37,732 bases of DNA, taken from sequence record SRR31147125_28975; one strand, 5' to 3'. Under the pieces are notes generated by a model. The model had not been told where the DNA came from. It did not search any database and was given only the letters and a program-made list of their open reading frames with translations. The translations under genes were made by a program, and so were the position numbers. Below are positions 3,521-37,732 of the stretch, piece by piece. Each line of letters begins with the position of its first letter. The first letter of the stretch is position 1.

Positions 3521-4383
3521 GATTTTTTACCTCTTTCTTTATATATTTCATTAAAATGTACTTTTTTATTTTTATACGTATAACCCAAGACTTGTTCAAG
3601 GTTCACATTGGTTGCTGCACGATATATTGATGCATCAACATCTGGATTTACTTTTCTAAGTGCTTGAATAAGTTCTTTGATTTCTCTACGTTTAGATGAT
3701 GTCTTTTCAGCAGCAACCGTACATCCACAATTCATTGATTGTATGCCACTGTTTTGTAACCATCTGATAATGTCTCGTTCTTTCACTTTCATCATTGGAC
3801 GAATCAGTTCAATATCATCAAAATTTAATGCTTCTATTTTAGGAACCATCGTTTTAAATGATCCACCATAAAACATATTTAACATCGTTGTTTCAATCAC
3901 ATCATCAAAATGATGTCCAAGTGCAAGTTTATTACATCCTAGAGATTTTGCTGCATCATACAAAAAACCACGTCTCATTCTTGCACACATATAACAAGGA
4001 TTTTCTTTTGCGATTTTTTCTACGACTTCAAATATATCTGATTCTCTGACTTCTAAAGGTATATTTAAATATTTACAATTCGTCTCTAAGAGTTCGCGAT
4101 TCACTTCATTAAATCCCGGGTCCATCGCAATAAATGCAATCTCAAATGGAATTTTATTGTGTCTTTTTAATTCTTGGAAGAGTTTTGCCATAATGAGACT
4201 ATCTTTACCACCTGAGATACCAATAGCTATTTTATCACCTGGTTGGATGAGTTCAAATTCATTAATCGTTTTAACAAATGGTCTAAAAATATCTTTTTTA
4301 TATGTCGTGATTAAGCTTTTCTCAATATCTTGTAATGGCTTAGTGGGCGCAGTTACCTCAATCATTTCACATACTTGTTTCAT
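3517..4383 (-). CDS. ttcA: tRNA 2-thiocytidine(32) synthetase TtcA family PP-loop ATPase
   Basis: SGGKDS PP-loop, PCYMCARMRRG, LALGHHFDD, LIRPM, C-terminal CGC. Confidence 0.85.
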   Translation of the reverse strand: MKQVCEMIEVTAPTKPLQDIEKSLITTYKKDIFRPFVKTINEFELIQPGDKIAIGISGGKDSLIMAKLFQELKRHNKIPFEIAFIAMDPGFNEVNRELLETNCKYLNIPLEVRESDIFEVVEKIAKENPCYMCARMRRGFLYDAAKSLGCNKLALGHHFDDVIETTMLNMFYGGSFKTMVPKIEALNFDDIELIRPMMKVKERDIIRWLQNSGIQSMNCGCTVAAEKTSSKRREIKELIQALRKVNPDVDASIYRAATNVNLEQVLGYTYKNKKVHFNEIYKERGKKS

Positions 4384-5324
4384 TATTTTTCCTCTAAGTA
4401 AGCAGTCGCTATTTCATTTGCTTTATTAGCAAAATCTTCTAGGTCTTCCCAAGAGTCTAATCTTGCACCTGCTGCTTTTGCATGGCCACCACCACCAAAT
4501 TGATTTGCAAGTGTTGAAATAGTTGGTCCATTTGAACGAAGTCTAATTCTTATTTCATTTGGGTATTCAATAAATAATGCCCATACAGGATATCCATCAA
4601 TACCTGATAGTGCATTGACAACAGATGCTGCTTGTTCATCTGTTACACCAAATGAATCGATAACATCTCTTGTCATCTTGATGTATATAAAATGATCTTT
4701 TGTCACATAATTAGAATAAACATATCCTTTTAATGCGACCATTTGTAATGTTTCTTTTGATAATTGTTGATCTATATATTCTACATCAACACCTTTTTCA
4801 ATAAGTAATCCTGCAAGTTGATGTGTTAATTTTGAAACACCACGATATCTAAATCTCCCTGTATCTGTGACGATACCTGTATATAATGCGATAGCACCAG
4901 TTTTAGTAAGCTTTAATTCATTTCTAAATTTATAATAAAAATATGTAATCATTTGCGCACATGATGGGAAACTTGTATCAACCCATCTTATATCTCCGTA
5001 GTCGTCTACTGGAATATGATGATCAATTTTAATGATGTAATCACCTTTGACATATCTTTCTTCGCTTATTCTTGATTGTGTCGCTGTATCAACAACAATT
5101 GATAATGCGCCTTGATAAACATCATCAGAGATTTCATCAACTTGTCCGACATAGTCAACATAACCACTCATACCACCTACGACATAAACTTTCTTATTCG
5201 GAAATGATGTTGTAATAATATCTTTTAATCCAAATTGTGAACCTAGGCAATCCCCATCTGGTCTTTTATGTCCATGAATAATAATTGTGTCATATGCTTT
5301 TATTTTATCTAATATTCTTTTCAT
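4383..5324 (-). CDS. nrnA: DHH/DHHA1 phosphoesterase (NrnA-like oligoribonuclease/pAp phosphatase), copy 2
   Basis: HKRPDGDCLGS, IDHH, GIVTDTGRF, RLRS, GGGGHAKAAG. Start reset to ATG 5324 by homology with the adjacent paralogue. Confidence 0.9.
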   Translation of the reverse strand: MKRILDKIKAYDTIIIHGHKRPDGDCLGSQFGLKDIITTSFPNKKVYVVGGMSGYVDYVGQVDEISDDVYQGALSIVVDTATQSRISEERYVKGDYIIKIDHHIPVDDYGDIRWVDTSFPSCAQMITYFYYKFRNELKLTKTGAIALYTGIVTDTGRFRYRGVSKLTHQLAGLLIEKGVDVEYIDQQLSKETLQMVALKGYVYSNYVTKDHFIYIKMTRDVIDSFGVTDEQAASVVNALSGIDGYPVWALFIEYPNEIRIRLRSNGPTISTLANQFGGGGHAKAAGARLDSWEDLEDFANKANEIATAYLEEK

Positions 5325-6264
5325 ATTCTTTCGCCCTTTCGTCAAAATCTTTTAATATCTGTTCTACTTCTTCCCAATTTTTAAGTGTTGCTCCACAAGC
5401 TTGAGCATGTCCGCCACCGCCATATTTTTTAGCAATGTCAACAATAGATATGCCTCTAGCTCTAAACTCGCCAATAATGGCATCTTTTTCTGCATCTTCA
5501 GAAAAACTTGCCCATATAGGTACTTCTTTAATACCAGCCATTTGGTTAACCATACCTCGAGATACCGCTTGGAACTCTAACCCACTTTGTTCGATGATTT
5601 CTTTTGTGTTTTTTCTGTAAGCGACATTATGTTTGGTTAATTCAAATGTAGTAAACATATTTTTAACTTTTCTTTTCTCTAGTGATTCCGTATAAATGAA
5701 ATCATAAAAATCTCTAATATTTGGATTGAACTTGGTAATATATGCTGCAAGTTCAAATGTCTTACTTGCTTCTTTTAAAAACATAAATCTTCCTGTGTCA
5801 GTCACCATGCCTGCATAAAGGTATGTGGCAGCATCAGGCGTGATGATGAATTTTTCTTCTTTAGCTAAATCAATGATCATTTCACATGCTGATGCAAAGG
5901 TATCATCTCTATAAAAGATGGATACATCATCAACATTTGTTTCATTGGTATGATGATCAATAATGATACGTTCCTTGGCAAGTTGATATCTTTCATCTGA
6001 TATCATATATGTCACTGCAACATCCGTGATTATTGATAATGCATCTTTAAATATATCATCGGATATATCATTCATGACCGCTTGATAACTCATATCATTT
6101 AAGTCACCAACAACATATATTTTTTTATTAGGATAACGCGCTTTTAATAATAGAGATAGTCCTACTTGTGATCCAATAGCATCCATATCTGGTCTTGTGT
6201 GTCTGTGGATGATAATTGTATCATATGATTCAATTGTTTTAATAATTTCTTTTTTAATATTCAT
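5305..6264 (-). CDS. nrnA: DHH/DHHA1 phosphoesterase (NrnA-like), copy 1
   Basis: HTRPDMDAIGS, IDHH, GMVTDTGRF, GGGGHAQACG; AAGGTAGG RBS. Confidence 0.9.
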   Translation of the reverse strand: MNIKKEIIKTIESYDTIIIHRHTRPDMDAIGSQVGLSLLLKARYPNKKIYVVGDLNDMSYQAVMNDISDDIFKDALSIITDVAVTYMISDERYQLAKERIIIDHHTNETNVDDVSIFYRDDTFASACEMIIDLAKEEKFIITPDAATYLYAGMVTDTGRFMFLKEASKTFELAAYITKFNPNIRDFYDFIYTESLEKRKVKNMFTTFELTKHNVAYRKNTKEIIEQSGLEFQAVSRGMVNQMAGIKEVPIWASFSEDAEKDAIIGEFRARGISIVDIAKKYGGGGHAQACGATLKNWEEVEQILKDFDERAKEYEKNIR

Positions 6265-23237: not shown

Positions 23238-23251
23238 TGAAAGCGCTTATT
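23238..23251. promoter_or_regulatory. cre-like / LacI-family operator upstream of the binding-protein gene
   Basis: TGAAAGCGCTTATT resembles the cre consensus TGWAANCGNTNWCA but lacks the final CA. Confidence 0.5.
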
Positions 23252-23318
23252 TTTGTAATGTTTATTTTTAATTTATAACTGACTTATTTTTTTAAAATTC
23301 AACAATCACTATGGACAT

Positions 23319-23362
23319 ATTATACACGATAAATACGTATTGTTCCCTTTATAAGAACAATA
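23319..23362 (-). promoter_or_regulatory. Putative activator-dependent promoter of the ABC/GH43 operon
   Basis: Minus-strand TATAAT at 23319-23324 with no consensus -35; inverted repeat TATTGTTC-N9-GAACAATA (23338-23362) covers the -35 position. Confidence 0.4.
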
Positions 23363-23474
23363 ATTTATAACTATACTTATTTACTTTTTACTATCTTTTT
23401 TTTATAATGATACTATAACAACTATTTTTAAATTAAAAAAATATACTTATAATGAGAATGGAGTTGGTTATCGT

Positions 23475-24320: not shown

Positions 24321-26037
24321 TTCCACAAGAAATATGTGGATAGATTTAAATGGTCTTTGGAAATTTAAATTCGATCCAAACCACATTGGATTATCAAATG
24401 GATGGCAAAATGGATTTGATTCATCTATTGAAATCGAAGTACCTTATGCATATCAAAGCCCTAAAAGTGGCATCAAAGATGATCAAACATATCATGTTGT
24501 TTGGTATGAAAAAACAATAACACTAAATGATGAACTACACAAAAGACCTATTCTACATTTAGAAGGGTCAGATTATTTTACAGATATTTATGTTAATGGG
24601 CAACATATTAAACACAATGAAGGTGGATACAATCAAATCTCTGTTGATTTATCCTTGTATTGTGGACAAACAATAACACTTGTTATTCGTGTTGAAGACG
24701 CGCTAGATGCCACTTTCCCTAGAGGAAAACAACGTTGGAAAACGCCTAGTTACGAATGTTTTTATGTAGAAACGACAGGTATATATAAACCTGTTTGGTT
24801 AGAATACGTTGGTAAATCATATTTATCTAAGTTTAAAATGACAACTGATGTCAATCAACGCTTGCTTGCGGTTGACTACTTTATTGATGGTGATATCGCT
24901 GATTTATATATAGAGACAACGATTGAATTTGATGATACAGTGATTTCAAAATCAAAACAACTTGTCACGAGAGAATCTTTTTCTCTTATACACCCATTAA
25001 CTACTGATCAACAGACTATGAAATTACACTTATGGGATCCAAAACACCCTCATTTGTATGATATTTCTTTTAAACTCATTAAAAATGATATTATTTTAGA
25101 TGAAGTATTATCATATTTTGGTGCAAGAAAAATTGATGTTGTTGGCCCTCAAATATTACTTAATCATGTACCTATATATTTAAAAATGGTGTTAGATCAA
25201 GGGTACTTTAATGATGGTCATATGACTCCTACTGAGGATGATTTAATACGTGATATAAAAATGATGAAGTCTCTTGGATTTAATGGTGTAAGAAAACATG
25301 AAAAAATAGAAGATGCAAGATTTCATTACTATTGCGATATCTTTGGTTTGCTTACTTGGGTAGAAATGCCATCTTTTTATGAGTTTAATCGTCTCGCTAC
25401 ATCACGCATGATGATTCAATGGCAAGATATTGTTGAAGCTCATTATAATTTCCCTTCTGTTATGGCATGGGTTTGCTTAAATGAGTCATGGGGAGTTCCT
25501 GGCATTTTAGATAACAAACATCAACAAGCATTTGCTGATGCGATGTACCATCGTACAAAATCAATTGATCAAAGTAGAATAGTCATTTCTAACGATGGTT
25601 GGGAACATACAACTTCGGATATTATAACCTTGCATAATTATAGAGAAACTTATGATGAACTCTATCATGCATACAAAGATATAAAAGATGTTTTAAACCG
25701 CAAAATAGATTTTAAACTACTTCCAAAATTTCCGTTAGCAAACGGATATTACTATCACGATGAACCAATTATTGTAAGTGAATTTTCAGGTATTGCTTTT
25801 GAAAAAGATGCACATCATGGATGGGGATATGGTCAAAGTGTTAAAGATGAAACAGCTTTTTTAAATAAATTAGAACATCAAATTGATGCACTATTAGCTA
25901 TTCCACAAATTACAGGTTATTGTGTTACACAATTAACCGATGTTCAACAAGAAGTTAACGGTTTATATACTGAAGATAGAATACTTAAAGTTGATATCAA
26001 TCGTTTAAAAGGTATTATTGCTAAAAATCCAAAATAA
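24277..26037 (+). CDS. Cytoplasmic GH2-family glycoside hydrolase
   Basis: HPRP, LNGLWKFKFD, RGKQ, TGIYKPVWLE, LDQGYF, GFNGVRKHEK, NESWG (acid/base Glu), SEFSG (nucleophile Glu), TQLTDVQQEVNGL. Confidence 0.92.
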   Translation: MKKTKSYLLNHPRPDSTRNMWIDLNGLWKFKFDPNHIGLSNGWQNGFDSSIEIEVPYAYQSPKSGIKDDQTYHVVWYEKTITLNDELHKRPILHLEGSDYFTDIYVNGQHIKHNEGGYNQISVDLSLYCGQTITLVIRVEDALDATFPRGKQRWKTPSYECFYVETTGIYKPVWLEYVGKSYLSKFKMTTDVNQRLLAVDYFIDGDIADLYIETTIEFDDTVISKSKQLVTRESFSLIHPLTTDQQTMKLHLWDPKHPHLYDISFKLIKNDIILDEVLSYFGARKIDVVGPQILLNHVPIYLKMVLDQGYFNDGHMTPTEDDLIRDIKMMKSLGFNGVRKHEKIEDARFHYYCDIFGLLTWVEMPSFYEFNRLATSRMMIQWQDIVEAHYNFPSVMAWVCLNESWGVPGILDNKHQQAFADAMYHRTKSIDQSRIVISNDGWEHTTSDIITLHNYRETYDELYHAYKDIKDVLNRKIDFKLLPKFPLANGYYYHDEPIIVSEFSGIAFEKDAHHGWGYGQSVKDETAFLNKLEHQIDALLAIPQITGYCVTQLTDVQQEVNGLYTEDRILKVDINRLKGIIAKNPK

Positions 26038-26060
26038 AAAAGGACAAAAGTCCTTTTTTT
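26036..26060. terminator. Bidirectional intrinsic terminator between convergent genes
   Basis: AAAAAAGGAC-AAAA-GTCCTTTTTTT, a perfect hairpin with A and T tracts touching both stop codons. Confidence 0.85.
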
Positions 26061-26850
26061 ATATATCCATATAATTTTTTTGTTCTTTCTTGTAGTATTT
26101 TGACGGTTCTTTTCTACCCATATATTTTTTTCTAAACACAAACACAATATAAAAACTTAAGATTACCACAACAACGTATACTGCAATTGATATATATAAA
26201 ACTGATAAATAGTCTTCGATTGAATGTATATATTTTGGATATATATGATGATCAATAAGTTCATCAAAAGGTAATTCATCATTTTGATTATCATATGCTG
26301 TCACTTCATCTTCAATGACTAATTGATTATTAGTCACTGTGAAATCATGTGATAAAACTATGTCATCATCTTCATTATATAAATCAAACGTTTCATACCC
26401 ATTTAATAATATCTCAACATCTATGCCATATTCACTGTTGTTTTCGTTTAGCATCATCGCTATATCCAATGATTGAAATTGATAAAACTGCAATGTCAAC
26501 TGCTCATCATCATTAGAAAATGTTATATTATAGTTTTTATCAATGCCTTGATCATATGTTAATAAAGCTGCGATATATGTCGTTACCTCAATACCATTTG
26601 TATTTTCCTTAACATCAGCAACTTCGTAAAATGCGATTCTATAGCCATCTTCTTCTATTTCTAATAAGATTTCATCACTACTGTAATCTCTTGCACTTCC
26701 ATAGAAAAACGCATCGTTTTCATATGTCAGTGCTTCGTTTCCTTTATCTTCAAAATAAAGATAAGACATTCTATTTTGTGCATAATTAAATGTAAACCAG
26801 AATGCGAATACAGCAAGCATCGCATATAAAATACGTCCAATTACTTTCAT
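26059..26850 (-). CDS. Hypothetical membrane protein (N- and C-terminal TM helices, acidic external domain)
   Basis: 263-aa ORF; two hydrophobic segments, basic tail; TAATG coupling to the upstream nuclease gene. Confidence 0.8.
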   Translation of the reverse strand: MKVIGRILYAMLAVFAFWFTFNYAQNRMSYLYFEDKGNEALTYENDAFFYGSARDYSSDEILLEIEEDGYRIAFYEVADVKENTNGIEVTTYIAALLTYDQGIDKNYNITFSNDDEQLTLQFYQFQSLDIAMMLNENNSEYGIDVEILLNGYETFDLYNEDDDIVLSHDFTVTNNQLVIEDEVTAYDNQNDELPFDELIDHHIYPKYIHSIEDYLSVLYISIAVYVVVVILSFYIVFVFRKKYMGRKEPSKYYKKEQKNYMDI

Positions 26851-28475
26851 TAACTATGAATTCCTAACTCGTTTTCTCTTGCGTAAGTTTCAGCGTCTTC
26901 AAACCATCTAAATAAATATCTGTTTTCAAATACTAGTTTTGATTCTGAGTCTAAGTAATTATATGAGAATCCATTTTTAACAAGTTCATAATTAAGCATC
27001 ACGCCATCAACCCACACATATGCTAACGTTCTACCATAAGTTTCTGTAAATCCTAAATCAGGATCACTTTGAAGATAAAATACACTACCATTGTTAATAA
27101 TATTTGTTGTAAATGCTTTAGCTTCTAATCCCCATGGATCAACATTTGGATATGTTTCAGGTGTATCTACACCTAAAAATCTTACACGTGAATCTCCGAG
27201 ATATCCTGGTGTAAATGCAATTGTATCACCATCATTGATTGTTGCTGGTTCTACTTGTTGCATACCACTGACTGTATCTAATCCAATTTGATTATTTAAA
27301 TATTCATCACTAATAGTAAACGATTCTGGAATTGTATTGGGGAACGTACCGAATGGTTCAAAATAGCTAGGAATAAATGCTACCCATTCATTATATGTAT
27401 AATCACGATTACCTTTAACTGTATTTTCATCTCTAATAAATAATTCATTTTCCATAATAAATAATTTATTGCCTAAATCATAGATTGTATCAATATATGT
27501 ATCATTACTATATCTTAGTTGAATGGTATCATTACCATCAAAACTTAAACGATTGGATGTTTTATCCGCTTTATCTTTTAACGTTGTCGATGTGCCACTT
27601 GATACTAATAAATATGTCTCTTGTGGTGCAAGCATGCCATCAAGTGTTACTATAATCGATGCTTCATAAGATCCATTTAAGAAAATAGCAACATGATACT
27701 CTGATAAATCAACAGTTTCATCTGTAGGATTATAGATTTCTAATGCATTATCTGAATTATCGCCTTCTAAATATTTAGAAAAGAATAGGGAATATGCATC
27801 ATCAGTAAATGTATTTTTATATACATGAATCACAATGGTTTCATCTTCATATGCTGGATCTCCAGCTTCATATAAAGCATAGCCAGCAACCTCATCTTCT
27901 GGCATTGAATCATCTGTGATATATTCAAATGTATAATTTTCAATAAATTCATACTCTAATAATTCGGTTGCTTCTGCTTTAGTTAATCCTGTTATTTCTG
28001 GTAAAAAATATCCATCATATGATACATTTACAATTACAATTTCATCTGCAGGAAAACTATCGCCTGCTTGATATCCATCATAATCAATAAATAAATAGTT
28101 TTCTGTTACTGATGCATCATATACATAATTTAGTTCATATGACACGCCTAATGTATCTAACTCATCTTCTATATTAGTAACATCTTCACCAGTTAAATCT
28201 GGTAACTCATAATAGTTATTCGCAACATATATAGTTACAGTAGAATCTTTATCAACAGCATCTCCTGTAGATAAATCTTTATATCCTATAAACTTTCCGC
28301 TTTCAATATCAAGATCTATAAGATATTCAACCTCTGTATTTATGCCTAAATCTTTTAATAAAATAACTGCATTATTTTCAGATTGTCCAGATAAATCCGG
28401 CAATTCAACACTACTATTACATGCTGTTAAAATTAATACTAACGCAAACACCATAAAAGGTATTATTTTTTTCAT
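26850..28475 (-). CDS. Lipoprotein nuclease: three PASTA-like repeats, lamin-tail domain (LTD), thermonuclease (SNase) domain
   Basis: Lipobox LTAC; LPDLSG/LPDLTG/LPEITG repeats; LFFSKYLEG..NALEIYNPT..VDLS (LTD); DGDT, RVRFLGVDTPE, YGRTLAYVWVDG, AR...LGI (SNase). Start reset to ATG 28475 (AAGGAG RBS). Confidence 0.9.
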   Translation of the reverse strand: MKKIIPFMVFALVLILTACNSSVELPDLSGQSENNAVILLKDLGINTEVEYLIDLDIESGKFIGYKDLSTGDAVDKDSTVTIYVANNYYELPDLTGEDVTNIEDELDTLGVSYELNYVYDASVTENYLFIDYDGYQAGDSFPADEIVIVNVSYDGYFLPEITGLTKAEATELLEYEFIENYTFEYITDDSMPEDEVAGYALYEAGDPAYEDETIVIHVYKNTFTDDAYSLFFSKYLEGDNSDNALEIYNPTDETVDLSEYHVAIFLNGSYEASIIVTLDGMLAPQETYLLVSSGTSTTLKDKADKTSNRLSFDGNDTIQLRYSNDTYIDTIYDLGNKLFIMENELFIRDENTVKGNRDYTYNEWVAFIPSYFEPFGTFPNTIPESFTISDEYLNNQIGLDTVSGMQQVEPATINDGDTIAFTPGYLGDSRVRFLGVDTPETYPNVDPWGLEAKAFTTNIINNGSVFYLQSDPDLGFTETYGRTLAYVWVDGVMLNYELVKNGFSYNYLDSESKLVFENRYLFRWFEDAETYARENELGIHS

Positions 28476-28512
28476 TTTCGTGCACTCCTTATTGTTACTT
28501 TGTTCAGTACTT

Positions 28513-28521
28513 ATTATACCA
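28513..28521 (-). promoter_or_regulatory. Extended -10 promoter for the nuclease gene
   Basis: Minus strand TGGTATAAT just downstream of the terminator U tract and 38 nt before the start codon. Confidence 0.6.
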
Positions 28522-28530
28522 TATTGATAT

Positions 28531-28562
28531 AAAAAAAGGTTGTTCTCAAATGAGAACAACCT
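28531..28562 (-). terminator. Strong intrinsic terminator after the 1383-aa lipoprotein gene
   Basis: 12-bp inverted repeat AGGTTGTTCTCA/TGAGAACAACCT followed by a T run on the minus strand. Confidence 0.9.
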
Positions 28563-28596
28563 CTTAAAACTTACTGTCTATATCCAGCTATATCAA

Positions 28597-31500
28597 TTAT
28601 GCTACAACTGAATGTGATCCGATATAATCAAAAGTATCTTGTGCGTATGATGTCCATTCTGAAACTGTATAAGTTGCATTTGAACTTGTCACATCTGCAT
28701 TTCTAACTAATGTCACATCTTTAGCGAAGTTTGAATCATCACCAAGTACACCAACTAAATCAACGATTGCACCATCAAATAATAGTGCTACTGCATCGTT
28801 ACCATTCCAGTTAGGAACACTTGGATAAGCTTGATCATCATCTGCAACTGCTAAGATTTCAGTACCTGCTGCACTGTTAGCTAATACAAATACTTCACCA
28901 GCTCCTAAAGTTACACCTGATAAATCATATGATTGAGTAATATCAGTAGCACCATTCGAATATAATGCTAAACTGTAACCTAATAATGTGATTGATTCAC
29001 CAGTACCATTATAGATTTCTACAGCTTTATTACTTGATGAACCTTCAATATATTCTGAAATAAATACATTTGCTGAAAATTCTACAGGTTTACTTACTGA
29101 TACAACAAATTGAACTTCTTCAGTTTCCGCTCCTACTGTCACAGTTGCAGTTAATGTTACTTCAACTGTTCCTGATTCAGGAAGTGTTACGGCACCTGTA
29201 GATGCATCAATTAATGTATTATCTGATGCCCAAGTAATTGTTGAATATGTACCTGCTGCAGGAAGTGTAATTGTTCCAGCTTCAGTAAATGAAGTTTCAA
29301 TATCTAATACCATTGCATCAGCTACAGCTTTTTCAGCATCAGTTAATGCGCTACCTACAACTAATGAAGTTTCATTTGTGAAGTATAAGTAAGGCCCGAA
29401 ACTCCAAGATAATGCGCCTTCATAATCATAAACGTCACCAACAGCGATTGCATCTAAGAATGCTTGTGCTTCTGTTGATAATGTTGCTCTTGAATCAAAT
29501 TTCATTGTAACATCTGAACCATTTGATAAGTTAACAAGTGTAACATAGGTATTACCATAACTATCAGATGATTTTTCTGAAACATATAAATGATCATAAG
29601 ACACTAACATACCTTGATAATCAATTAGAGCATCGTCTAAAGCCATTGCTGATAAATCAGTAACAGCTGGCATTGCAGGTGCTTCATCAATAATTTCATA
29701 AACTGATAAATCAGTGATTTCAGCTAATCCACCATATGGAGATAATATACCAACAACTTTAACTTCTTTACCTTGGTTAGCAGCAAAGAACGCTTGTACA
29801 TCTGAATCATAAGTGTAGATTGCGATACCACCAGTTTCATCTTGGATGAAATAAGTTCTATAGTATTCACCACCAACGATGACACCTTCTACTTTAACTT
29901 CTGAATCATCATCCATTGCTTTAGCTTCTGAAATTGTAATTGCTGGAGTTTCACCAACATAAATTTCAATTTCAACTTCTTCTGTTTCAGCACCTTTAGT
30001 AAGTGTTGCTGTTAAAGTAACCATAACTTGTGAACCATCAGTAGGCACAACAACATCACCATTTAATGCGATAACCGCTTCGTTATCTGATGCCCATGAA
30101 ATTGCAACACCTAGTTCTTCTGTTGATAATTCTAATGTGAAATCTTCTAAAATATCTTCTTCAAACACAAATCCTTCAGGTAATAAAGCTGCTACAGCTG
30201 CTACAGCTGCTGCATCACTTAAAGTATCAAATGTAATACCTGTAGTATCTGTGAAATATAAGTAAGGATCATTTGACCAAGCTAGAGGATTAGTTACTGT
30301 TACATAAGAACCTTCTATAACTGAGTCTAATAACGCTTGTGCTTCTGTTGATAATGTTACTCTTGAATCTTGTTTCATATCAAGTTCTGCACCATCTGCT
30401 AATCTAACAAATGTGATATATGTATTACCATAACTATCTGATGAAACTTCTGATACATATAAATCTGAAATTTCTACTAATTGACCTTGGTAAGGTAATA
30501 ATGCTTCTGCTGTTAAATCCATAGCATCTAAGTTAACTGCTGTTGGCATCACTGCATCAACATCATTAACAACTGTTAAGAAGTCGCTATCTGGAGATAC
30601 TTGAACCATATCTCTATATGAAGTCATTGAACCTAAGATTTGTACTTCATTACCATAGTTTGCTTGTAAGAAAGCTTCAACGTCTGAATCATATGAATAG
30701 ATTGCAACACCACCAGTAGCATCTTGGATAAAGTATGTGTTTTGATATTCGGCTGCTGTTACAACACCAGTGACTACAACAACTGTTCCAGCATCTTCTG
30801 CTCTTGCTGCTGAAATATCACTATTTGCAGGCACACCTACTGTTACAACGATTTGTACTTCAACTGGTGTGATATCACCTTTAGCAATTGTTGCTGTTAA
30901 AGTTACATCTACTTGTCCTGATGCAGGAATTGCAACTGCACCAGTTGTAGGATTAATTACCGCTTCATCTGATGATGCGTAAGTAATTATTGTATCATAT
31001 AATGATGCTGGTAAATCAAGTGTATCGCCTTCATAGAAGACTTCATCAAACATACCAGGTAAGTTTTCTTGAGCTGCATCAACAGATTGTTGATCAGTTA
31101 AGTGAACTGTAATATCATCTGAATCACCGAAGAAATAAGTATACCAGATGTTTCTATCTGAACGGTAACCGAATAATAATACATCAATTGTAATTTCTTT
31201 ACCATCTAATGCTGCAACATCATCTTTATTTGGTGAACCATAATATACAAGTAATACATCATCTGTTGCATATTCAGTTGCTTTACCATCAGTACCAACG
31301 TTTGTGATCACTGTGTTGCCAGTATAATCAACTGGTACTAAGTATGTATTATAGTTTGATCCACTATTTGTATCTTGTGCATCAACAACAACTTTAACTC
31401 TTAATTGAACATATTCAAATACCATGAAGTTTAAATCACTTGGAGGTGTTCTACCATCTAATAAGTCGGAAATTGTTGAAGTAGAACCTTCTAGTGAAGC

Positions 31501-32748
31501 TGCAACTTCGTCAGATGGAGTTGCTACTAATGGAAGACCAGTATCACTTACTAATTCTGGAATACCATAATATGGTGAGAATACACCGGCAACATCATAT
31601 ACTGAACCAACTTCTACATCATCACCAAATGATGAATCATACACATAAATCATGTTTGTACCATCACTTAAGAACGCGTTTGTTCCAACAATAGCAATAA
31701 CTGTTACACCATTTACTTGTACATAATCACCAGATGCTGCATCTGAGATTGCTGCAATTGAATCAACTAATGTAGGTTCTTCATATGCTAATACAACAAA
31801 TTGATATTCACGTGTAAATGTATCTGATCCTACTGTAATTGATGCAGTAACAGTTACTGTCACATCATCTTCACCAGCAGCAGGTCTAACAACCACACCT
31901 TCACCATCAACGATATCTAAGTTTGCAGGCATATCTGATGACCATGAGATTGCATAAGTTTCATCTTCATAAGTATATGATGGTAAGAATGCTTCTAAAT
32001 CATCAACTGTACCTAACCATGCTTCTGCACCAGTAATACCTTCATTTGCAGGGAATGTTACAACGATATCAAATACTTCGTTAACTGTTTCTGATGCTGT
32101 CTTATCTAATGTTAAAACATATGCATAGAAATTAACTGTATCTGATTCACTACCTTTAGTTAAAGTAGCTGTTAATTGTACTGTTAAACCACTTGCGCCA
32201 TCAGCGTCAGTATAACTTGGTCTATTTACAGTACCGTCAGTAGCAACGATTGCTTCATCATTTGATGCCCATGACACTGATACCCCTTCAATTGTTGTGA
32301 CTAAACTAAGATCATCACTCACTTCATAACTATCATCACCAATAGTCGCTGCATAATTTGCGATAAGTGCTGCTTTCGCAGTATCCACTTGATCAGCTGC
32401 AGGGATCATTGGGACAACCACATCAAATTCAACTTCTTTTTCAGTTTCATTGAGTGTAATTGTAGCAGTTAATGTTAAGTTAACATCATCTTGTTGTCTT
32501 GTTACAACACCAGTGTTTGAAATAACATCTGTATTACTTGAAGACCATGCAATTGTAGCATCACCAACTGAGGTGATTAAATTTAGGTCATCTGTAACCT
32601 CGTAAGCATCAGAGCCGATTGAATCTGCATAATTTGCGATTAAATCTGCTTCTGCTGTATCTAATAATTCATCAGTATTATCACATGCTGTTAGTAAACC
32701 AACAAGTGCAACTGCTAGAACTACTAGTAAAATACGTAGTTTCTTCAT
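28597..32748 (-). CDS. 1383-aa surface lipoprotein, Ig3-(OB-OB-Ig)3-LTD, no recognisable catalytic domain
   Basis: Lipobox LTAC; six I.W.S.N..V....G.V......V.LTAT Ig-like modules; YhcR-like OB modules (VTGVVTA..YFIQDATGGVAIY); C-terminal VFISEYIEGSSSNKAVEIYNGTG LTD; AGGAGG RBS. Confidence 0.85.
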   Translation of the reverse strand: MKKLRILLVVLAVALVGLLTACDNTDELLDTAEADLIANYADSIGSDAYEVTDDLNLITSVGDATIAWSSSNTDVISNTGVVTRQQDDVNLTLTATITLNETEKEVEFDVVVPMIPAADQVDTAKAALIANYAATIGDDSYEVSDDLSLVTTIEGVSVSWASNDEAIVATDGTVNRPSYTDADGASGLTVQLTATLTKGSESDTVNFYAYVLTLDKTASETVNEVFDIVVTFPANEGITGAEAWLGTVDDLEAFLPSYTYEDETYAISWSSDMPANLDIVDGEGVVVRPAAGEDDVTVTVTASITVGSDTFTREYQFVVLAYEEPTLVDSIAAISDAASGDYVQVNGVTVIAIVGTNAFLSDGTNMIYVYDSSFGDDVEVGSVYDVAGVFSPYYGIPELVSDTGLPLVATPSDEVAASLEGSTSTISDLLDGRTPPSDLNFMVFEYVQLRVKVVVDAQDTNSGSNYNTYLVPVDYTGNTVITNVGTDGKATEYATDDVLLVYYGSPNKDDVAALDGKEITIDVLLFGYRSDRNIWYTYFFGDSDDITVHLTDQQSVDAAQENLPGMFDEVFYEGDTLDLPASLYDTIITYASSDEAVINPTTGAVAIPASGQVDVTLTATIAKGDITPVEVQIVVTVGVPANSDISAARAEDAGTVVVVTGVVTAAEYQNTYFIQDATGGVAIYSYDSDVEAFLQANYGNEVQILGSMTSYRDMVQVSPDSDFLTVVNDVDAVMPTAVNLDAMDLTAEALLPYQGQLVEISDLYVSEVSSDSYGNTYITFVRLADGAELDMKQDSRVTLSTEAQALLDSVIEGSYVTVTNPLAWSNDPYLYFTDTTGITFDTLSDAAAVAAVAALLPEGFVFEEDILEDFTLELSTEELGVAISWASDNEAVIALNGDVVVPTDGSQVMVTLTATLTKGAETEEVEIEIYVGETPAITISEAKAMDDDSEVKVEGVIVGGEYYRTYFIQDETGGIAIYTYDSDVQAFFAANQGKEVKVVGILSPYGGLAEITDLSVYEIIDEAPAMPAVTDLSAMALDDALIDYQGMLVSYDHLYVSEKSSDSYGNTYVTLVNLSNGSDVTMKFDSRATLSTEAQAFLDAIAVGDVYDYEGALSWSFGPYLYFTNETSLVVGSALTDAEKAVADAMVLDIETSFTEAGTITLPAAGTYSTITWASDNTLIDASTGAVTLPESGTVEVTLTATVTVGAETEEVQFVVSVSKPVEFSANVFISEYIEGSSSNKAVEIYNGTGESITLLGYSLALYSNGATDITQSYDLSGVTLGAGEVFVLANSAAGTEILAVADDDQAYPSVPNWNGNDAVALLFDGAIVDLVGVLGDDSNFAKDVTLVRNADVTSSNATYTVSEWTSYAQDTFDYIGSHSVVA
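29090..30820 (-). repeat. Intragenic tandem duplication of a ~290-aa OB-OB-Ig unit (boundaries approximate)
   Basis: YFIQDATGGVAIYSYDSDV vs YFIQDETGGIAIYTYDSDV 882 nt apart; identical 24-mer GCTTGTGCTTCTGTTGATAATGTT at 29462 and 30335. Confidence 0.85.
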
Positions 32749-32791
32749 TTGAATCCTCCTATTTTTTTTAATTCTTTCTATATTAAAGAGT

Positions 32792-34816
32792 TTATACTCC
32801 TAATAGACGTTCCGCTTCTGAGACAGCATATGCTAATGCGTTAGAAATTGTGTCTCCTTCAGATGGGTCAATCACTCTTGCAAATGCAACCCCTACAGCA
32901 TCTCTAATACCTGATGAACCAACGAATGCTGGATCATAGAAGAAATAATCTGATTGTTGTGCTGCTGCTCTTGCTGCTTTAGAGCGCATAAGCATTGCAC
33001 CTTCTAATAAAGTTTCGCCATCTGTATCATATCCTGCCATAAAGTTTTGATATGCTTCTGTGACATAAACACTTGAACGGATTGGTGAATAACCAGTTTC
33101 TAATGCAAAGTCTAATTGCACATCTCTACTTGTTAAATATTTTAAGAATAACCAAGATGCAAGTTTTTGTTGATCACTACCTGAATTTGTAAGTGACATA
33201 TTTGTACCTTGTTGAATCACTGCTTTATCATTTGGAAGATCAGCATTATAAGGAATAGGTGCAACTTCGAAGTCAAATAAATATTCTCCGTCTACAGTAG
33301 TTGGTGTATTATAATACGCACCACCTGTAGAACCTACTGTTACAAATGTTTGACCTTTTTTAAATACATCAGATGCATATGCTTGACCCCAATGTGATGG
33401 GATTGTGATTTTATCTTTGTTATTACTAAAATAAGTTAACATATCAATTGCTTCTTGTGAATCAAATAAATATTCTCCATTACCTTCACTGTTTGTTGCA
33501 GTGTATTCTCCGCCCCATTGACGAATAAGTGTAATAAATGCATTATCTTCTGAGTCATAAGAATAAGGAATAAATAAGTCTTTTGCTTCTGTAATCTCAG
33601 CAGCTGTTAAACCTAGTGCTGTACCATATTGATCAATATAGTTATCTGCAACGCCTTCAAATGCTGAAGATGCAGCAAATAATCCTTGCCATGTTGTTGG
33701 CATTTCATCAATTGCACCTGATGATATTAATGCATCTACAACATCAGCATTATAAATAAGTACTTCTGTTGATTTGTTAAATGGTAGTGAGTAGAATTCA
33801 CCCGGTGTAGCATTATCACCAACAAATTGACTATTTTCTTCACGATAATTCCAAAGGATATCTTCTAATGTTTCTGTTTCATCAGTACTATCATATCCCC
33901 ATGTAGGATTATCAATATATGGATTTAAACTTAAGATCACATTGTTGGCAATATATTCTGCCACATGATCAGGATAACCTTGAACGATGTTTGGTAATGT
34001 ACCACCTTTGATTGCGCTGACAACATTTTGTCTAAGTGCATCATAGTTATCACCATTTTTAACAATGTTCACTGTAACATTTGGATAAAGTGCTTCGAAT
34101 TCACCAGCATATGTATTTAATGCGCCTTCAATAGTTGAACCATTTGAATGCCATAGTGTAATTTCGATGTCATCTGATGTTAAATCTGAAGGTATGAAGT
34201 CTACTTCATTTTTAACAGTTAATGAAATCGTTGTTGTTGCACTAGCACCTAACTCATTTTCTACTGATAATGAGAAATTATAGCGACCAGCTCTTGTTAA
34301 TGATGGTAAATCGTTAACAACAATGCTATCTGTTAGATCGACTTCATCACCGTCTTTAGTATCAACTGCTTGTACACCTCTAAGTGGATCATAATCAGTT
34401 GAACCAATATAATAAGTTTGAGCAGTTTGTACATATCTAAGTTCTACAGTTTGTTCAACATTACCAACAACGGTTAGTGTCACTGATTCAGTCGCAGTTA
34501 ATCCGCCTGCATCTTCTACTGAGATTGTATATGAATATACACCACCTGCTTCATTAGATAACCAAGCTTCTTGGAAACCTTCAGCTGTAATTTCACTTGT
34601 TAAATCACCATCTTGTGCATCAGTTGCTGTGACGCCATCAAGTGGATCAAACGTGTCTCCGAAGTCAATTGAAACTTCATTTTCAACACCTGATAAACTT
34701 GGTGCAGTATTTCTAACTTCTACTGAACATGCAGTTAGAATAGCTGCGATAAGTAAGGCTGTAAAAAGACCTGTGAATTTTTTCATCATAGTTCTTTTTG
34801 TTGTTATTTTCTTCAT
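32792..34816 (-). CDS. ABC substrate-binding lipoprotein (family 1/UgpB-like) with two N-terminal Ig-like (DUF5011-type) domains
   Basis: Lipobox LTAC; FDPLDGVTATDAQDGDLT and YDPLRGVQAVDTKDG Ig modules; ITLWHS, PNIVQGYPDHV, SLPFNKST, GSTGG, QQGTN, TGYSP. Start reset to ATG 34816 (AGGAGG RBS). Confidence 0.88.
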   Translation of the reverse strand: MKKITTKRTMMKKFTGLFTALLIAAILTACSVEVRNTAPSLSGVENEVSIDFGDTFDPLDGVTATDAQDGDLTSEITAEGFQEAWLSNEAGGVYSYTISVEDAGGLTATESVTLTVVGNVEQTVELRYVQTAQTYYIGSTDYDPLRGVQAVDTKDGDEVDLTDSIVVNDLPSLTRAGRYNFSLSVENELGASATTTISLTVKNEVDFIPSDLTSDDIEITLWHSNGSTIEGALNTYAGEFEALYPNVTVNIVKNGDNYDALRQNVVSAIKGGTLPNIVQGYPDHVAEYIANNVILSLNPYIDNPTWGYDSTDETETLEDILWNYREENSQFVGDNATPGEFYSLPFNKSTEVLIYNADVVDALISSGAIDEMPTTWQGLFAASSAFEGVADNYIDQYGTALGLTAAEITEAKDLFIPYSYDSEDNAFITLIRQWGGEYTATNSEGNGEYLFDSQEAIDMLTYFSNNKDKITIPSHWGQAYASDVFKKGQTFVTVGSTGGAYYNTPTTVDGEYLFDFEVAPIPYNADLPNDKAVIQQGTNMSLTNSGSDQQKLASWLFLKYLTSRDVQLDFALETGYSPIRSSVYVTEAYQNFMAGYDTDGETLLEGAMLMRSKAARAAAQQSDYFFYDPAFVGSSGIRDAVGVAFARVIDPSEGDTISNALAYAVSEAERLLGV

Positions 34817-34835
34817 CTTCTCTTTTCCTCCTATT

Positions 34836-36266
34836 TTATCCTTTAGTACCGGCTCTACCGACACCTTTAATAATATATTTTCTTAATGCGAGGAAAACAA
34901 TGATTAACGGAATTGTTACCATTGCACTCGCGGCAATTTGCATATTAAACATGACACGTGCTTCTGTACCACCAGTTGTAAAGTCTGCGTCACGAAGTGC
35001 TGCAGAGATTAACCAGTATGCTTGTCCTTCTGTTACATCTCCAACACTTGTTACAAGTCTTGGCCAAATGAATGCATTCCATGAACCAATAACATTTAAG
35101 ATAGTGATGGTGAATAATGTTGGTGCTGCAATTGGAATCATCACTCTTGTTAAATATTTGAAATCACTTGATCCATCAACTTTTGCTGCTTGATAGAGTG
35201 AATTTGGAATTTGTCTAAATGTTTGTCTTAAGAAGAATATATAGAATACACTTGTCATAAATGGTACGATCATAGCAAGGAAATATTGGTTTTCACCAGT
35301 TGCCCCACCAATCCATCCCCAACCAGCTTGTGAAACTGTTAAGAAGTTTGTAATAATATATAATTCACCTGGAATCATCATTGTCATCAATAGGACAGAG
35401 AAAATCGTTTCTCTACCTTTGAAATCTAGTCTTGCAAACGCAAATGCTGCAAGAATGGTTGTAATGATTGTTCCGACTGTTGATAAGACACCTACAATTA
35501 ATGTATTTTTAATATAAATACCAAAATCAATTTCTTGTAAAACATATTTATAATTGACCCATTGCATCTCAGATAATGAAATGAAAAATCTTGGATTATC
35601 TGTTAAATTTGCTTCATAGTATGTTTTAAGTGAAGTAAGTATCATCCAATAAAATGGAATAAAGATAAATAGTGCCATAATTGCTAAAAATCCATAAAGT
35701 AGTGTTGTTGATAATAATTTAGCAAAGACTTGTTTATGCATCTTTCTCTTTAATGCTTCGTCTTCATCTTCATCAACTGGTTTCTTTTTAAATAGATTTT
35801 TAATCGATTGTCCTATTTTCTTAAATAGTACAATAAATCCACCTTCTGTCGTTTGTAGTAAGATTTTTCTTGAAATCAAAATTCTTAATACAAAACTAAA
35901 GGGATTAAATAACACAAGTGATAATAATCCTTGTGTAAGAATTGATCCTGCTGTCCATGCATGATATTCCCAAAATTCTCTATTTCTTACTTTTTTCCAA
36001 TTAATAAATAACATTGGAATACCAACCATCATTAGCAATGCAAGAATACTCATCCAAAAGTTAATGGCAGCTTGTGCAACCGATTGACCAAATATTTGAT
36101 AATCAAATGCGAGTATATCATCAGTTGTCGGTGCAACTGTAGGGACTTTTAGTTGATAGAACAAGTATAGAAACATTGAGACATAAACCACAGCAAACAC
36201 TGCATCTATGATTTGTGTGATATATTCTAATCTTTTAATATCTTTTATTTGTTGTTTATTCATCAT
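34836..36266 (-). CDS. ABC permease (MalG/UgpE-like) with a ~180-aa N-terminal membrane extension
   Basis: PFYWMILTSLK, AAFAFARL, LYQAAKVDGSS loop, SWNAFIWP in the C-terminal ~290 aa. Confidence 0.9.
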   Translation of the reverse strand: MMNKQQIKDIKRLEYITQIIDAVFAVVYVSMFLYLFYQLKVPTVAPTTDDILAFDYQIFGQSVAQAAINFWMSILALLMMVGIPMLFINWKKVRNREFWEYHAWTAGSILTQGLLSLVLFNPFSFVLRILISRKILLQTTEGGFIVLFKKIGQSIKNLFKKKPVDEDEDEALKRKMHKQVFAKLLSTTLLYGFLAIMALFIFIPFYWMILTSLKTYYEANLTDNPRFFISLSEMQWVNYKYVLQEIDFGIYIKNTLIVGVLSTVGTIITTILAAFAFARLDFKGRETIFSVLLMTMMIPGELYIITNFLTVSQAGWGWIGGATGENQYFLAMIVPFMTSVFYIFFLRQTFRQIPNSLYQAAKVDGSSDFKYLTRVMIPIAAPTLFTITILNVIGSWNAFIWPRLVTSVGDVTEGQAYWLISAALRDADFTTGGTEARVMFNMQIAASAMVTIPLIIVFLALRKYIIKGVGRAGTKG

Positions 36267-36276
36267 TTGCTCCTTC

Positions 36277-37317
36277 TTAGTAGTGAACGCGCTTTTTACT
36301 CAATTGCATTTGAATAAGTGTTAATACTAAAATAAATGCAAATAGAATAATTGAACCAGCTGCAGCAAGTGATAAGTTTTCGCCACTATAAATATAGTCA
36401 TAAATATAGAATACAATTGTTTTTAATGTATAATTCGCGCTATCCGGTTGTCCAACGTCACCAAATATCGCAACAACTGAAGTATATGTTTTAAATGCAC
36501 CAATAAATGAAGTCACAATAATATAGAATATCATTGGTGAAATCAAAGGTACTGTAATTCTTCTAAACACTTTAAATTTAGGTGTTGAATCGATAGCAGC
36601 TGCTTGATAATATTGTTTATCAATGCCTTGCATACCAGATAAGAAAACCATAATCTTAAATGCCATACCATCCCAAACACCAAATAATATCAAGACTGAC
36701 ATGGCACGCCAATAAGTTGCTCCACGCTCAACCCAGGATAATGGTTCGATACCAAAAATACCTAAGAATTGATTCACAAGTCCTGAATTTCCTGATTTAA
36801 ACATATAAGCAAACACTAAACCAATCGCTAGTGTATTTGTAATATAAGGTAAGAAAAAGATTGTTTGTAAAAATCCTTGTAACGGTTTAATATTGTTAAG
36901 TGCTGCGGAAACAAATAGTGATAACAATACTGAAATCGGTACTGAGATGAAAACAATCGCTAGTGTGTTAAGTAAAACACTAGATCCTGTGTGTGTTGAA
37001 GGTAATAAGAAATTATCTGTATTTAAAATCGTTGCAAAATTCCCAAATAATGTATATCCTGTAATACTTTCAACTAAATTACCTGAGCCATCAGATACAT
37101 GCATGTATCCTTCATAGATCACTAATCTAAATGCATTTAGAATAGGATAAAATGTGAAGATACCAAGTAATAGTAAAGCAGGAGATAAATATATCAGCGC
37201 TTTAGCCCACACTGGAAGATTAATATTGTTAAGATGCAACACATCTTTAACTTTTGACTTAACTTTATTTATATTAAGTCTAATATTCCAGATCCAATTT
37301 TTTAACGTATTTATCAT
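36277..37317 (-). CDS. ABC permease (MalF/UgpA-like)
   Basis: YLSPALLLLGIFTFYP, FFLPYIT, YYQAAAIDST loop, ITVPLISP. Confidence 0.92.
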   Translation of the reverse strand: MINTLKNWIWNIRLNINKVKSKVKDVLHLNNINLPVWAKALIYLSPALLLLGIFTFYPILNAFRLVIYEGYMHVSDGSGNLVESITGYTLFGNFATILNTDNFLLPSTHTGSSVLLNTLAIVFISVPISVLLSLFVSAALNNIKPLQGFLQTIFFLPYITNTLAIGLVFAYMFKSGNSGLVNQFLGIFGIEPLSWVERGATYWRAMSVLILFGVWDGMAFKIMVFLSGMQGIDKQYYQAAAIDSTPKFKVFRRITVPLISPMIFYIIVTSFIGAFKTYTSVVAIFGDVGQPDSANYTLKTIVFYIYDYIYSGENLSLAAAGSIILFAFILVLTLIQMQLSKKRVHY

Positions 37318-37732
37318 TAGATCACGTCACCACTTTCAGGATCAAATAATAAAATTTTGTGGTCTCTTACTGTTAAAATGACTTTTTCTGCTGCTTCATA
37401 TGATTCAGAGTCAACAAGTGCTCTGATTTGTGTATTATTTAAATTAAATCTAACCATTGTATCTCTACCAATTGTATCAATTTCTGCATCTTGAATTTCG
37501 ATACCTTCTTTTGTAGAGATTTTGAAATCTTCTGGACGAAGTCCAACATCATATAACCCGTTTTTAGCTTTTTTATGACCGAATTTTATACCATCAACAT
37601 ATAAAACGTTTGATTTAACTTCACCTTTTACGATGTTAATTGGTGGATTTCCTAAAAATTCAGCAACGAATCTATTTTTTGGGTGAAGATAAACGTTTTG
37701 AGGTTCATCTTTTTGTTGTTCAACACCTAGCT
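37317..37732 (-). CDS. ABC ATP-binding protein (MalK/UgpC-like), C-terminal part only; not in the ORF track
   Basis: Manual translation LGVEQQKDEPQNVYLHPKNRFVAEFLGNPPINI...VGLRPEDF...FDPESGDVI*; TAATG overlap with the permease start. Confidence 0.9.
   Translation of the reverse strand, partial: LGVEQQKDEPQNVYLHPKNRFVAEFLGNPPINIVKGEVKSNVLYVDGIKFGHKKAKNGLYDVGLRPEDFKISTKEGIEIQDAEIDTIGRDTMVRFNLNNTQIRALVDSESYEAAEKVILTVRDHKILLFDPESGDVI

Follow-up and report, generated by a model that had tools for sequence, protein, structure and literature searches.

Extracellular DNA is a major pool of phosphorus, nitrogen, and carbon, and wall-less bacteria, from free-living sediment dwellers to pathogens of animals, rely on building blocks of nucleic acids that they scavenge. 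We analyzed a 37,732-nt stretch of DNA from sequence record SRR31147125_28975 (hereafter the window), whose final 11.7 kb (26059–37732) holds seven co-oriented minus-strand genes for an ATP-binding cassette (ABC) transporter, its substrate-binding protein (SBP), a giant lipoprotein, a nuclease lipoprotein, and a membrane protein with two transmembrane (TM) segments. This block is probably the form that a nuclease-coupled ABC import system, kept across wall-less Bacillota, takes in Acholeplasmataceae; the system would capture nucleic acids at the cell surface, cut them, and import the phosphorylated fragments. Capture, cutting, and import together form the best-supported functional idea for these genes, and the idea is well supported because the gene set is strongly conserved and the SBP has homologues in the mycoplasmas. 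It is not a new idea: loci of this type have been published as ‘DNA-degradation loci’ of Candidatus Izemoplasmatales (Wasmund et al. 2021, PMC8289736), and the corresponding mycoplasma genes have been termed a putative nucleotide transporter operon (MBOVPG45_0307-0311; PMC4045577, PMC12115388), to which M. gallisepticum mslA and its neighboring gene for a 276-aa nuclease lipoprotein also correspond. The novelty implied by an initial annotation, made from the letters of the window alone, was thus overstated, since a locus type with a reinterpreted ABC transporter and a large protein with a lamin-tail domain (LTD) had already been described (PMC8289736, PMC8397711). What may be new is the homology between the SBP and the mycoplasma MslA/P68 lipoproteins, the phylum-wide linkage of SBP and SNase genes, the module formed by the nuclease and its two-TM neighbor, and the argument for a phosphorylated cargo. 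The window also places in Acholeplasmataceae the same putative capture, cut, and import block that is found in Izemoplasmatales.

The transporter and its binding lipoprotein

In order of transcription, the block encodes an ATPase, permease 1, permease 2, the SBP lipoprotein, the giant lipoprotein, the nuclease lipoprotein, and the two-TM protein. The initial annotation had listed the same seven co-oriented genes (with an Ig-extended SBP, an OB/LTD giant, a PASTA-LTD-thermonuclease, and a coupled membrane protein), and open reading frames (ORFs) together with Pfam and NCBIfam matches confirmed this set. The ATPase and permease 1 genes overlap by 1 base, as do the nuclease and membrane-protein genes; other gene neighbors lie 10–43 nt apart. 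All three lipoproteins (SBP, giant, and nuclease) carry a lipobox cysteine. An alternative genetic code with TGA read as tryptophan was considered for the window and rejected, the ORFs of all seven genes being identical under translation tables 11 and 4.

The transporter has the hallmarks of a type I importer of the CUT1 (Ugp/Mal) class, namely two permeases and an adjacent SBP. The gene of the UgpC/MalK-type ATPase (37317..37732, minus strand) continues at its 5′ end past the end of the window. Its C-terminal 137 aa match NCBIfam UgpC (NF008653, E 3.8e-15, model positions 211–353 of 357) and, with only these last 137 aa in the window, reach 17.3 bits against OB_MalK (cut-off 27); full-length orthologues in relatives measure 348–400 aa. 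Permease 1 (UgpA/MalF-like, 346 aa; 36277..37317, minus strand) shows six hydrophobic windows and matches BPD_transp_1 (46.7 bits, cut-off 26.4) as well as NCBIfam UgpA (E 1.4e-24). Permease 2 (UgpE/MalG-like, 476 aa; 34836..36266, minus strand) matches BPD_transp_1 over residues 271–469 (51.2 bits) and shows nine hydrophobic windows. About three extra hydrophobic segments fall in an N-terminal extension of ~190 aa (residues 1–190; 35700–36266, minus strand), which is kept in loci with an Ig-extended SBP (permease length 469–546 aa) and absent in short-SBP and mycoplasma relatives (~295–345 aa). Loci that have the extension also encode the giant protein and a tethered SBP; the extension may be a docking site.

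The SBP gene (32792..34816, minus strand) encodes a 674-aa lipoprotein in which Pfam recognizes a UgpB-like SBP_bac_8 core behind a lipobox (LTAC) and two Ig-like domains. The core match (E 1.5e-30, 107 bits against a cut-off of 27) runs over residues 252–607 and covers model positions 2–273 of 279. In the Ig-like part, He_PIG lies above its Pfam cut-off and Bact_surface_Ig-like slightly below. Cys30 is invariant in an alignment of 14 sequences, and the closest solved structures are UgpB proteins (E 7e-19, partial matches). Metagenome-assembled genomes of Acholeplasmataceae, Izemoplasmatales, and other Mycoplasmatota commonly encode this family, and their source labels name it a glycerol-3-phosphate (G3P) or multiple-sugar binding protein, just as the initial annotation had predicted that automatic pipelines would call this transporter a sugar or G3P system.

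Conservation among related loci

A scan of species-representative genomes returned 583 relatives of the SBP, and the best 80 loci were kept. Their ORFs were searched with the window proteins and with hidden Markov models (HMMs) built from the matches; many of these contigs end within the block. The giant protein followed the SBP within two genes in 70 of the 71 loci with more than 1.5 kb of downstream sequence, and the one miss was a fusion paralogue. Behind the LTD-SNase nuclease, the two-TM protein was present in 47/47 loci with room for it (41 found by phmmer, six more by HMM), most commonly with a gene overlap of 4 nt or 1 nt. The complete seven-gene set occurred in 40/80 loci, in two arrangements: order A, with the nuclease after the giant gene as in the window (28 loci), and an Izemoplasmatales-type order, with the nuclease and membrane protein before the ATPase (20 loci). 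These two gene orders suggest that the nuclease pair moves as a module, in line with the terminator and promoter upstream of the nuclease described below. A second SNase gene without an LTD stood between the SBP and giant genes in 14 loci, though not in the window.

The linkage extended beyond the close relatives. Among 299 scored genomes sampled across the phylum, 46 encoded the SBP at a profile E ≤ 1e-60, all of them 1.0–2.3 Mb in size. In 12/12 regions with weaker SBP matches lacking Ig domains (short SBPs), the genes followed one another as ATPase, permease, permease, SBP, and SNase; three of the 12 came from genomes that read TGA as tryptophan, and two also carried an NrnA-like pair. Loss of the ABC genes from the vicinity of nuclease and OB genes in relatives had been named at the outset as grounds for abandoning the functional proposal, and the neighborhood survey found the opposite (70/71, 47/47, and 12/12).

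A pair of NrnA-like DHH/DHHA1 phosphoesterases was linked to the block in many of the 80 loci. Enzymes of this kind act on short oligonucleotides and bisphosphates. The window pair (Pfam DHH and DHHA1), both on the minus strand, comprises a 319-aa protein (5305..6264) and a second one (4383..5345; likely start ATG ~5324), both without a signal peptide. They match NrnA (NF053633) with E 1.7e-82 (4383..5345) and 2.6e-71 (5305..6264) and score 276.9 and 240.2 bits, under the equivalog cut-off of 350; the DHH and GGGH motifs are readable in both. Such a pair lay downstream of the block and co-oriented with it in 24 of the 27 loci that had 3 kb or more of sequence there (33/80 overall). It began 63–65 nt past the membrane-protein gene in four loci (L003, L004, L010, and L012) whose SBPs are 66–67% identical to that of the window, and one of these (L003) shares with the window the genes behind the pair (TtcA-like, MgtC, and MnmE). 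The bounds first given for the system (26059..37732) cover the seven genes, but the functional block also includes the NrnA-like pair at 4383–6264.

The fusion paralogue is a 1318-aa protein of Mycoplasmatota bacterium zrk2 (CP076020.1; locus L040, 9242–13198), with cohesin, dockerin, Ig-like, SBP_bac_8 core, aBig_2, OB-type module, and SNase domains. Its SBP core is 53% identical to that of the window, and no ABC genes adjoin it; the same genome also has a canonical locus (L034). Three loci (L036, L034, and L020) carry a small lipoprotein gene (179–227 aa, no Pfam family) between permease 2 and the SBP. Between their giant gene and NrnA-like pair, one or two genes for Endonuclease_1 lipoproteins run on the opposite strand. 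A gene for a Na/Pi cotransporter-PhoU fusion follows the pair in L034 and L036; L020 ends inside the second NrnA-like gene.

Link to the mycoplasma MslA/P68/P80 operon

The initial annotation had likened the block to a CUT1-type ABC operon of mycoplasmas that includes an SNase lipoprotein, and a homologous operon was indeed found. The NCBIfam P68 model scored above its cut-off in 73/299 genomes, all of ~0.6–1.2 Mb and all reading TGA as tryptophan; the SBP and P68 types occurred together in 0/299. An ATPase–permease–permease set homologous to that of the window (phmmer E 1e-22 to 1e-89 for the ATPase and both permeases) stood directly after the lipoprotein in 19/20 P68 regions. In 18 of these 19 loci a further lipoprotein lay between P68 and the ABC set. 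It was an SNase by HMM in eight and by Pfam at E ≤ 0.01 in five more (three above the cut-off), and in the last five it retained only a DGDT...IDT[PL]E motif, read by eye.

The homology also includes the SBP itself, which goes beyond what the comparison with MG185 and MslA had assumed. In hhalign comparisons with the P68 profile, the Ig-extended SBPs reached 96.8% (E 2.9e-10, 274 columns) and the short SBPs 99.2% (E 9.2e-20, 315 columns). The alignment runs from the lipobox through a common IGSTAGY-type motif, and the C-terminal third of P68 has no recognizable SBP similarity left. One of the P68 proteins is named by its source ‘mycoplasma specific lipoprotein A’ (MslA), of the P68 or P80 family. 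Pfam places it in Lipoprotein_X (MG185/MG260) and Lipoprotein_10, and its neighbor is a 276-aa nuclease-like lipoprotein. The window SBP is not itself a P68 member (lipo_P68, NF045826: E 7e-10, 38 bits against a cut-off of 200) and has no Pfam match to Lipoprotein_X or Lipoprotein_10. Judged from profile alignment, this comparison shows the mycoplasma MslA/P68/P80 lipoproteins to be apparent divergent copies of the window-type SBP.

The two systems thus share homologous ATPases and permeases, an SNase lipoprotein beside them, divergent homologous SBPs, and the same proposed function. They differ in several respects. The giant OB/LTD protein, which the initial annotation did not recall from the mycoplasma version, was not found in the 20 mycoplasma loci, which likewise lack an LTD or PASTA repeats on the nuclease and the two-TM partner. 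The mycoplasma ATPase (577–758 aa) is about twice as long as the window type (~350 aa) owing to a large insertion, and the mycoplasma gene order is a circular permutation of that in the window. NrnA-like DHH genes adjoin the operon in two of the 20 mycoplasma loci (L120 and L123 among L105–L124), and a further lipoprotein gene often stands after the permeases.

MslA reportedly binds DNA, both single- and double-stranded, and it has been proposed to pass oligonucleotides to the nuclease, whereupon nucleotides would enter via the ABC transporter (PMC4045577). Among the papers listed by literature searches, none linked the mycoplasma operon with the Izemoplasma loci.

The giant lipoprotein, the nuclease, and its putative membrane partner

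The giant lipoprotein (1383 aa; 28597..32748, minus strand) combines six aBig_2 domains, an LTD (E 1.1e-14), and OB-type modules of the DUF5689/BOF kind. Pfam scans of the whole protein and of ten pieces gave its layout: three aBig_2 domains (residues 32–112, 121–212, and 264–321), module X1 (331–560), aBig_2 (577–630), module X2 (651–860), aBig_2 (866–932), module X3 (936–1135), aBig_2 (1158–1219), and the LTD (1226–1334). X3 lies barely above the cut-offs for DUF5689, BOF, and the NCBIfam OB-fold domain in the whole-protein scan. X2 and X3 are 50% identical (E 2e-58), and X1 resembles them distantly (E 5e-4).

Similarity to nucleases of the ExeM/NucH type (for example, Shewanella ExeM) is confined to the part that precedes the catalytic domain. 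At its C-terminus the giant protein resembles the LTD part at the N-terminus of ExeM (E 4.4e-39). Residues 659–809, within X2, match the ExeM/NucH model NF033681 at positions 1–154 of 546 (50.3 bits, cut-off 300), and NF033680 is matched at positions 12–175 of 884. The giant protein accordingly shares the ExeM-type LTD and the OB-type module, and it lacks the catalytic endonuclease/exonuclease/phosphatase part; no nuclease or other catalytic domain was found in it with Pfam or NCBIfam. In the PDB, a sequence search hit nothing but the Ig-like portions of arabinanases (E 1e-4). The overall picture is of the non-catalytic front part of an ExeM-type nuclease, which presumably holds nucleic acids, present in several copies and mounted on a stalk. 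With the catalytic part of the family absent, it would be a binding scaffold rather than an ExeM/NucH enzyme, and its binding of nucleic acids is suggested by this domain composition.

Cutting would fall to the nuclease lipoprotein (541 aa; 26850..28475, minus strand), in which Pfam recognizes PASTA repeats (E 1.3e-13), an LTD (E 1.4e-10), and SNase (PF00565, E 5.8e-15, 56.1 bits against a cut-off of 21), all above their cut-offs. When the domain is aligned to S. aureus nuclease chains, DGDT, R, DTPE, and YGR are all retained. By the numbering of the S. aureus enzyme these include the Ca-binding Asp/Asp/Thr and the catalytic Arg/Glu/Arg positions, which are invariant or nearly so in 25 orthologues, and in the same 25-sequence alignment the lipobox cysteine is nearly invariant. 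These positions are also common to S. aureus SNase and the mycoplasma nucleases MGA_0676, Mpn133, MG_186, and mhp379, and the window enzyme is lipoprotein-anchored like the mycoplasma ones (PMC12115388). It differs from all of them in having three PASTA-like repeats and an LTD in front, and a dedicated two-TM partner gene. The repeats occupy residues ~30–250 (27750–28420, minus strand), with an NCBIfam match to the PASTA region of the Stk1 kinase. PASTA domains are usually linked to peptidoglycan sensing. In a host lineage that we take to lack a cell wall, they may serve as a spacer or bind something else.

The two-TM protein (263 aa; 26059..26850, minus strand) has a hydrophobic segment at each end, a basic tail, and an ectodomain of ~190 aa. 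Its gene is translationally coupled to that of the nuclease, whose stop overlaps its start by 1 nt. It had no match in Pfam, NCBIfam, or the PDB. Its best ESM Atlas match (0.88) is a Mycoplasmatota cluster that gave no lead to function. A profile search of 1.84 billion proteins put the size of the family at 128 representatives, and a Pfam scan of ten longer members found nothing above cut-off. The protein is confined to loci with an LTD-type nuclease (50/80 loci, against 0/12 short-SBP and 0/20 mycoplasma loci), and we propose, with low confidence, that it is the membrane partner of this nuclease.

Comparison with published systems

The published Izemoplasmatales loci are the nearest counterpart of the block. 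A similar cluster (zrk13) has been described in the cultured DNA-degrading isolate X. coldseepsis (Zheng et al. 2021, PMC8397711). Relatives of Izemoplasma grow on and degrade DNA (PMC8289736, PMC8397711), and in a further isolate nucleic acids elicit a response from a locus that holds NrnA and ABC genes (PMC10470597). The window and the Izemoplasmatales loci have orthologous SBPs, permeases, ATPases, LTD-SNases, two-TM proteins, giant aBig/OB/LTD proteins, and NrnA-like pairs. The window shares with these loci SBP homologues beside nucleases, a large secreted OB/LTD protein, and an NrnA-like pair (here 19.8 kb off). The Izemoplasmatales loci L020, L034, and L036 add Endonuclease_1 lipoproteins and, in L034 and L036, Na/Pi-PhoU, which fits the published description as matched by its text. 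The window, by contrast, has one SNase and no Endonuclease_1 or phosphate transporter gene, and so lacks the several extracellular nucleases and the phosphate transporter typical of those loci. Further differences are that its nuclease and membrane protein follow the giant gene, whereas those of the Izemoplasmatales precede the ATPase, that its SBP carries two Ig-like domains, and that its NrnA-like pair is split off by a 19.8-kb sugar island. Its giant protein has no nuclease domain, unlike the published 1,049-aa Izemoplasmatales protein, which is said to have one.

For all four transporter parts, the nearest characterized system by sequence is the sn-glycerol-3-phosphate/glycerophosphodiester importer UgpB-UgpAEC (E. 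coli and M. tuberculosis), a type I importer with a MalK-like ATPase whose ligand is a phosphate ester or phosphodiester. The window SBP departs from UgpB in the long insertions of its core and in its two Ig-like domains, and the genes around it encode nucleases rather than glycerol metabolism.

Proposed mechanism and the identity of the cargo

We hypothesize the following sequence of events. The giant lipoprotein, with three OB-type modules, an LTD, and an Ig-like stalk, would hold extracellular DNA or RNA at the surface, off the membrane. The PASTA-LTD-SNase, made together with its two-TM partner from a promoter of their own, would cut the polymer into small 3′-phosphorylated fragments; SNase-type enzymes leave 3′-phosphate ends. 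The Ig-tethered, UgpB-like SBP would collect these pieces, phosphorylated mono- to short oligonucleotides, for import by the two permeases and the UgpC-like ATPase; the two cytoplasmic NrnA-like enzymes would finish them to usable nucleotides. We infer each of the binding events, the nature of the cargo, and the roles of the membrane protein and the NrnA-like pair; the import of oligonucleotides is suggested by genomic context.

Short phosphorylated fragments fit best as the cargo. They are favored over nucleosides because a phosphate ester is the ligand of the closest SBP relatives with solved structures, because cytoplasmic enzymes for short oligonucleotides are linked to the locus across lineages, and because a separate Bmp-family binding protein, of the family usual for nucleoside uptake, is encoded elsewhere in 3/3 related genomes. 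A fourth reason is that the growth of M. bovis on DNase-digested DNA ceases once small polynucleotides are removed (PMC6895004).

Several points weigh against this reading. No binding or transport measurement for this transporter family was found in the literature consulted. The OB-type status of X1 and X2 rests on internal similarity and sub-threshold matches. The NrnA-like pair of the window is separated from the block by a 19.8-kb island (6264–26059) that makes co-transcription impossible, NrnA-type enzymes also have housekeeping roles, and the position of the pair next to the block elsewhere may be old inherited synteny. The zrk2 protein was the only SBP–nuclease fusion among the longer proteins, which makes for a weak Rosetta-stone argument. 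No contig pieces from the nuclease, membrane-protein, or GH2 genes were present in the two metatranscriptomes described below. To these are added the published assignments and the Ugp matches that speak for other cargoes, which we weigh with the rival readings.

The published reading of the Izemoplasmatales loci, in which dephosphorylation happens outside the cell and the ABC transporter takes up nucleosides or nucleobases, is unlikely for the window. Wasmund et al. wrote of ‘probable nucleoside or nucleobase transporters’, arguing from the nuclease neighborhood of SBP homologues, and noted both that membranes are impermeable to nucleotides and that Izemoplasmatales genomes encode extracellular 5′-nucleotidases (PMC8289736). 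In the window block, however, and among the recognized genes of Acholeplasmataceae-type loci, there is no nucleotidase gene. The separate Bmp-family protein and the phosphate-ester ligands of the nearest solved SBP relatives, which are not nucleosides, tell against it as well, and with nucleosides as cargo the linked NrnA-like enzymes (24/27) would have no substrate.

A second possibility, in our estimate quite improbable, is that the SBP-like lipoprotein is a surface nucleic-acid receptor feeding the nuclease, as proposed for MslA, and that the permeases work without a classical SBP or with another one. The loss of SBP similarity from the C-terminal third of P68 agrees with such a role, as does the zrk2 paralogue, in which the SBP domain and a nuclease are joined in one protein that has no neighboring ABC genes. 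Yet the core of the window SBP is a full SBP_bac_8 domain, its gene comes immediately behind those of the permeases, the canonical type I layout, the block holds no other SBP gene, and type I importers of the MalFGK/UgpAEC class need a binding protein. The least probable alternative, to which we give very little weight, is that the transporter imports G3P, glycerophosphodiesters, or sugars and that the nucleases only share with it a general phosphate- and carbon-scavenging neighborhood: the best NCBIfam matches of its parts (UgpC, UgpA, UgpE/GlcU, and UgpB), the UgpB structures, the source labels of homologues, the drawing of M. pneumoniae MPN134-136 as a putative G3P system (PMC3178575), and the Na/Pi cotransporter-PhoU gene at the end of Izemoplasma loci all point that way, but the Ugp matches fall far under their equivalog cut-offs (50.1 against 411 bits for the SBP with UgpB, NF008211; 87 against 335 for UgpA; 73 against 297 for UgpE), SBP and SNase genes adjoin each other in very distant relatives with different genetic codes (12/12 short-SBP regions and 19/20 P68 regions with ABC genes), the mycoplasma homologue MslA reportedly binds DNA (PMC4045577), and one natural SBP-OB-SNase fusion exists.

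Returning to phosphorylated fragments as cargo, we tentatively extend this reading to the whole phylum, aware that the extension may well prove too broad. The Ig-extended SBPs of Acholeplasmataceae and Izemoplasmatales, the short SBPs of other lineages, and the mycoplasma MslA/P68/P80 lipoproteins might form one ABC family dedicated to short oligonucleotides with a 3′-phosphate, from dinucleotides up to a few residues, that are finished by a dedicated NrnA-like pair, with the two-TM protein as the obligatory partner of the LTD-type nuclease. If true, this family would be the first case of oligonucleotide import by an ABC transporter, and the long-sought nucleotide route of genome-reduced mycoplasmas, which are unable to make nucleotides, would be named. 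Should the cargo be short oligonucleotides, thousands of G3P and sugar transporter annotations in the phylum would be wrong and a new class of ABC substrates would be added.

Probable transcription units of the block

The block looks like two transcription units, one from the ATPase to the giant protein and one for the nuclease and membrane protein, because a terminator-like hairpin and a TGgTATAAT box stand between the giant and nuclease genes. The hairpin (28534..28565, minus strand) has 14 pairs and a T-run. After the stop of the giant gene, the order is this hairpin with its T-run, the TGgTATAAT box, AAGGAG, and ATG 28475. The initial annotation had begun the nuclease at TTG 28559, the start of the longest ORF, which over-reads; ATG 28475, with the ribosome-binding site AAGGAG, is preferred. 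A hairpin with a T-run behind the giant gene recurred in 9/10 order-A loci that passed the script filters (of the 28 in existence), and its stem sequences vary from locus to locus. A second terminator-like hairpin (26036..26059, minus strand) closes the block and is common to it and a convergent GH2 gene.

In the contigs of two marine metatranscriptomes (X16 and X17), short pieces match three genes, those of the giant protein, the SBP, and permease 2, the last exactly in X16 and with 4 mismatches in 54 nt in X17; thin pieces in X17 also cover permease 1 and the ATPase. Two raw-read runs contributed no matching sequence. The contigs show neither strand nor level and may include DNA carry-over, so they do not prove transcription.

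The carbohydrate island

The 19.8 kb between the block and the NrnA-like pair are a carbohydrate island that has been inserted between them. Its genes include the Leloir genes galE, galK, and galT, a LacI regulator gene, two GH43 genes, a gene for a 1412-aa CBM9/CarboxypepD_reg protein, an AraC gene, and the GH2 gene. In the closest complete genome in the set, 6.7 kb lie between the block and the pair. The island also encodes a sugar ABC system with an SBP and two permeases and without an ATPase; the nuclease-linked transporter may lend it its own. The first permease gene of the sugar system (20962–21830, minus strand) is split by a frameshift: the frame at 21174–21830 stops after 218 aa, and the conserved C-terminal part resumes in another frame at 20962–21237, which marks the gene as either a pseudogene or an assembly error.

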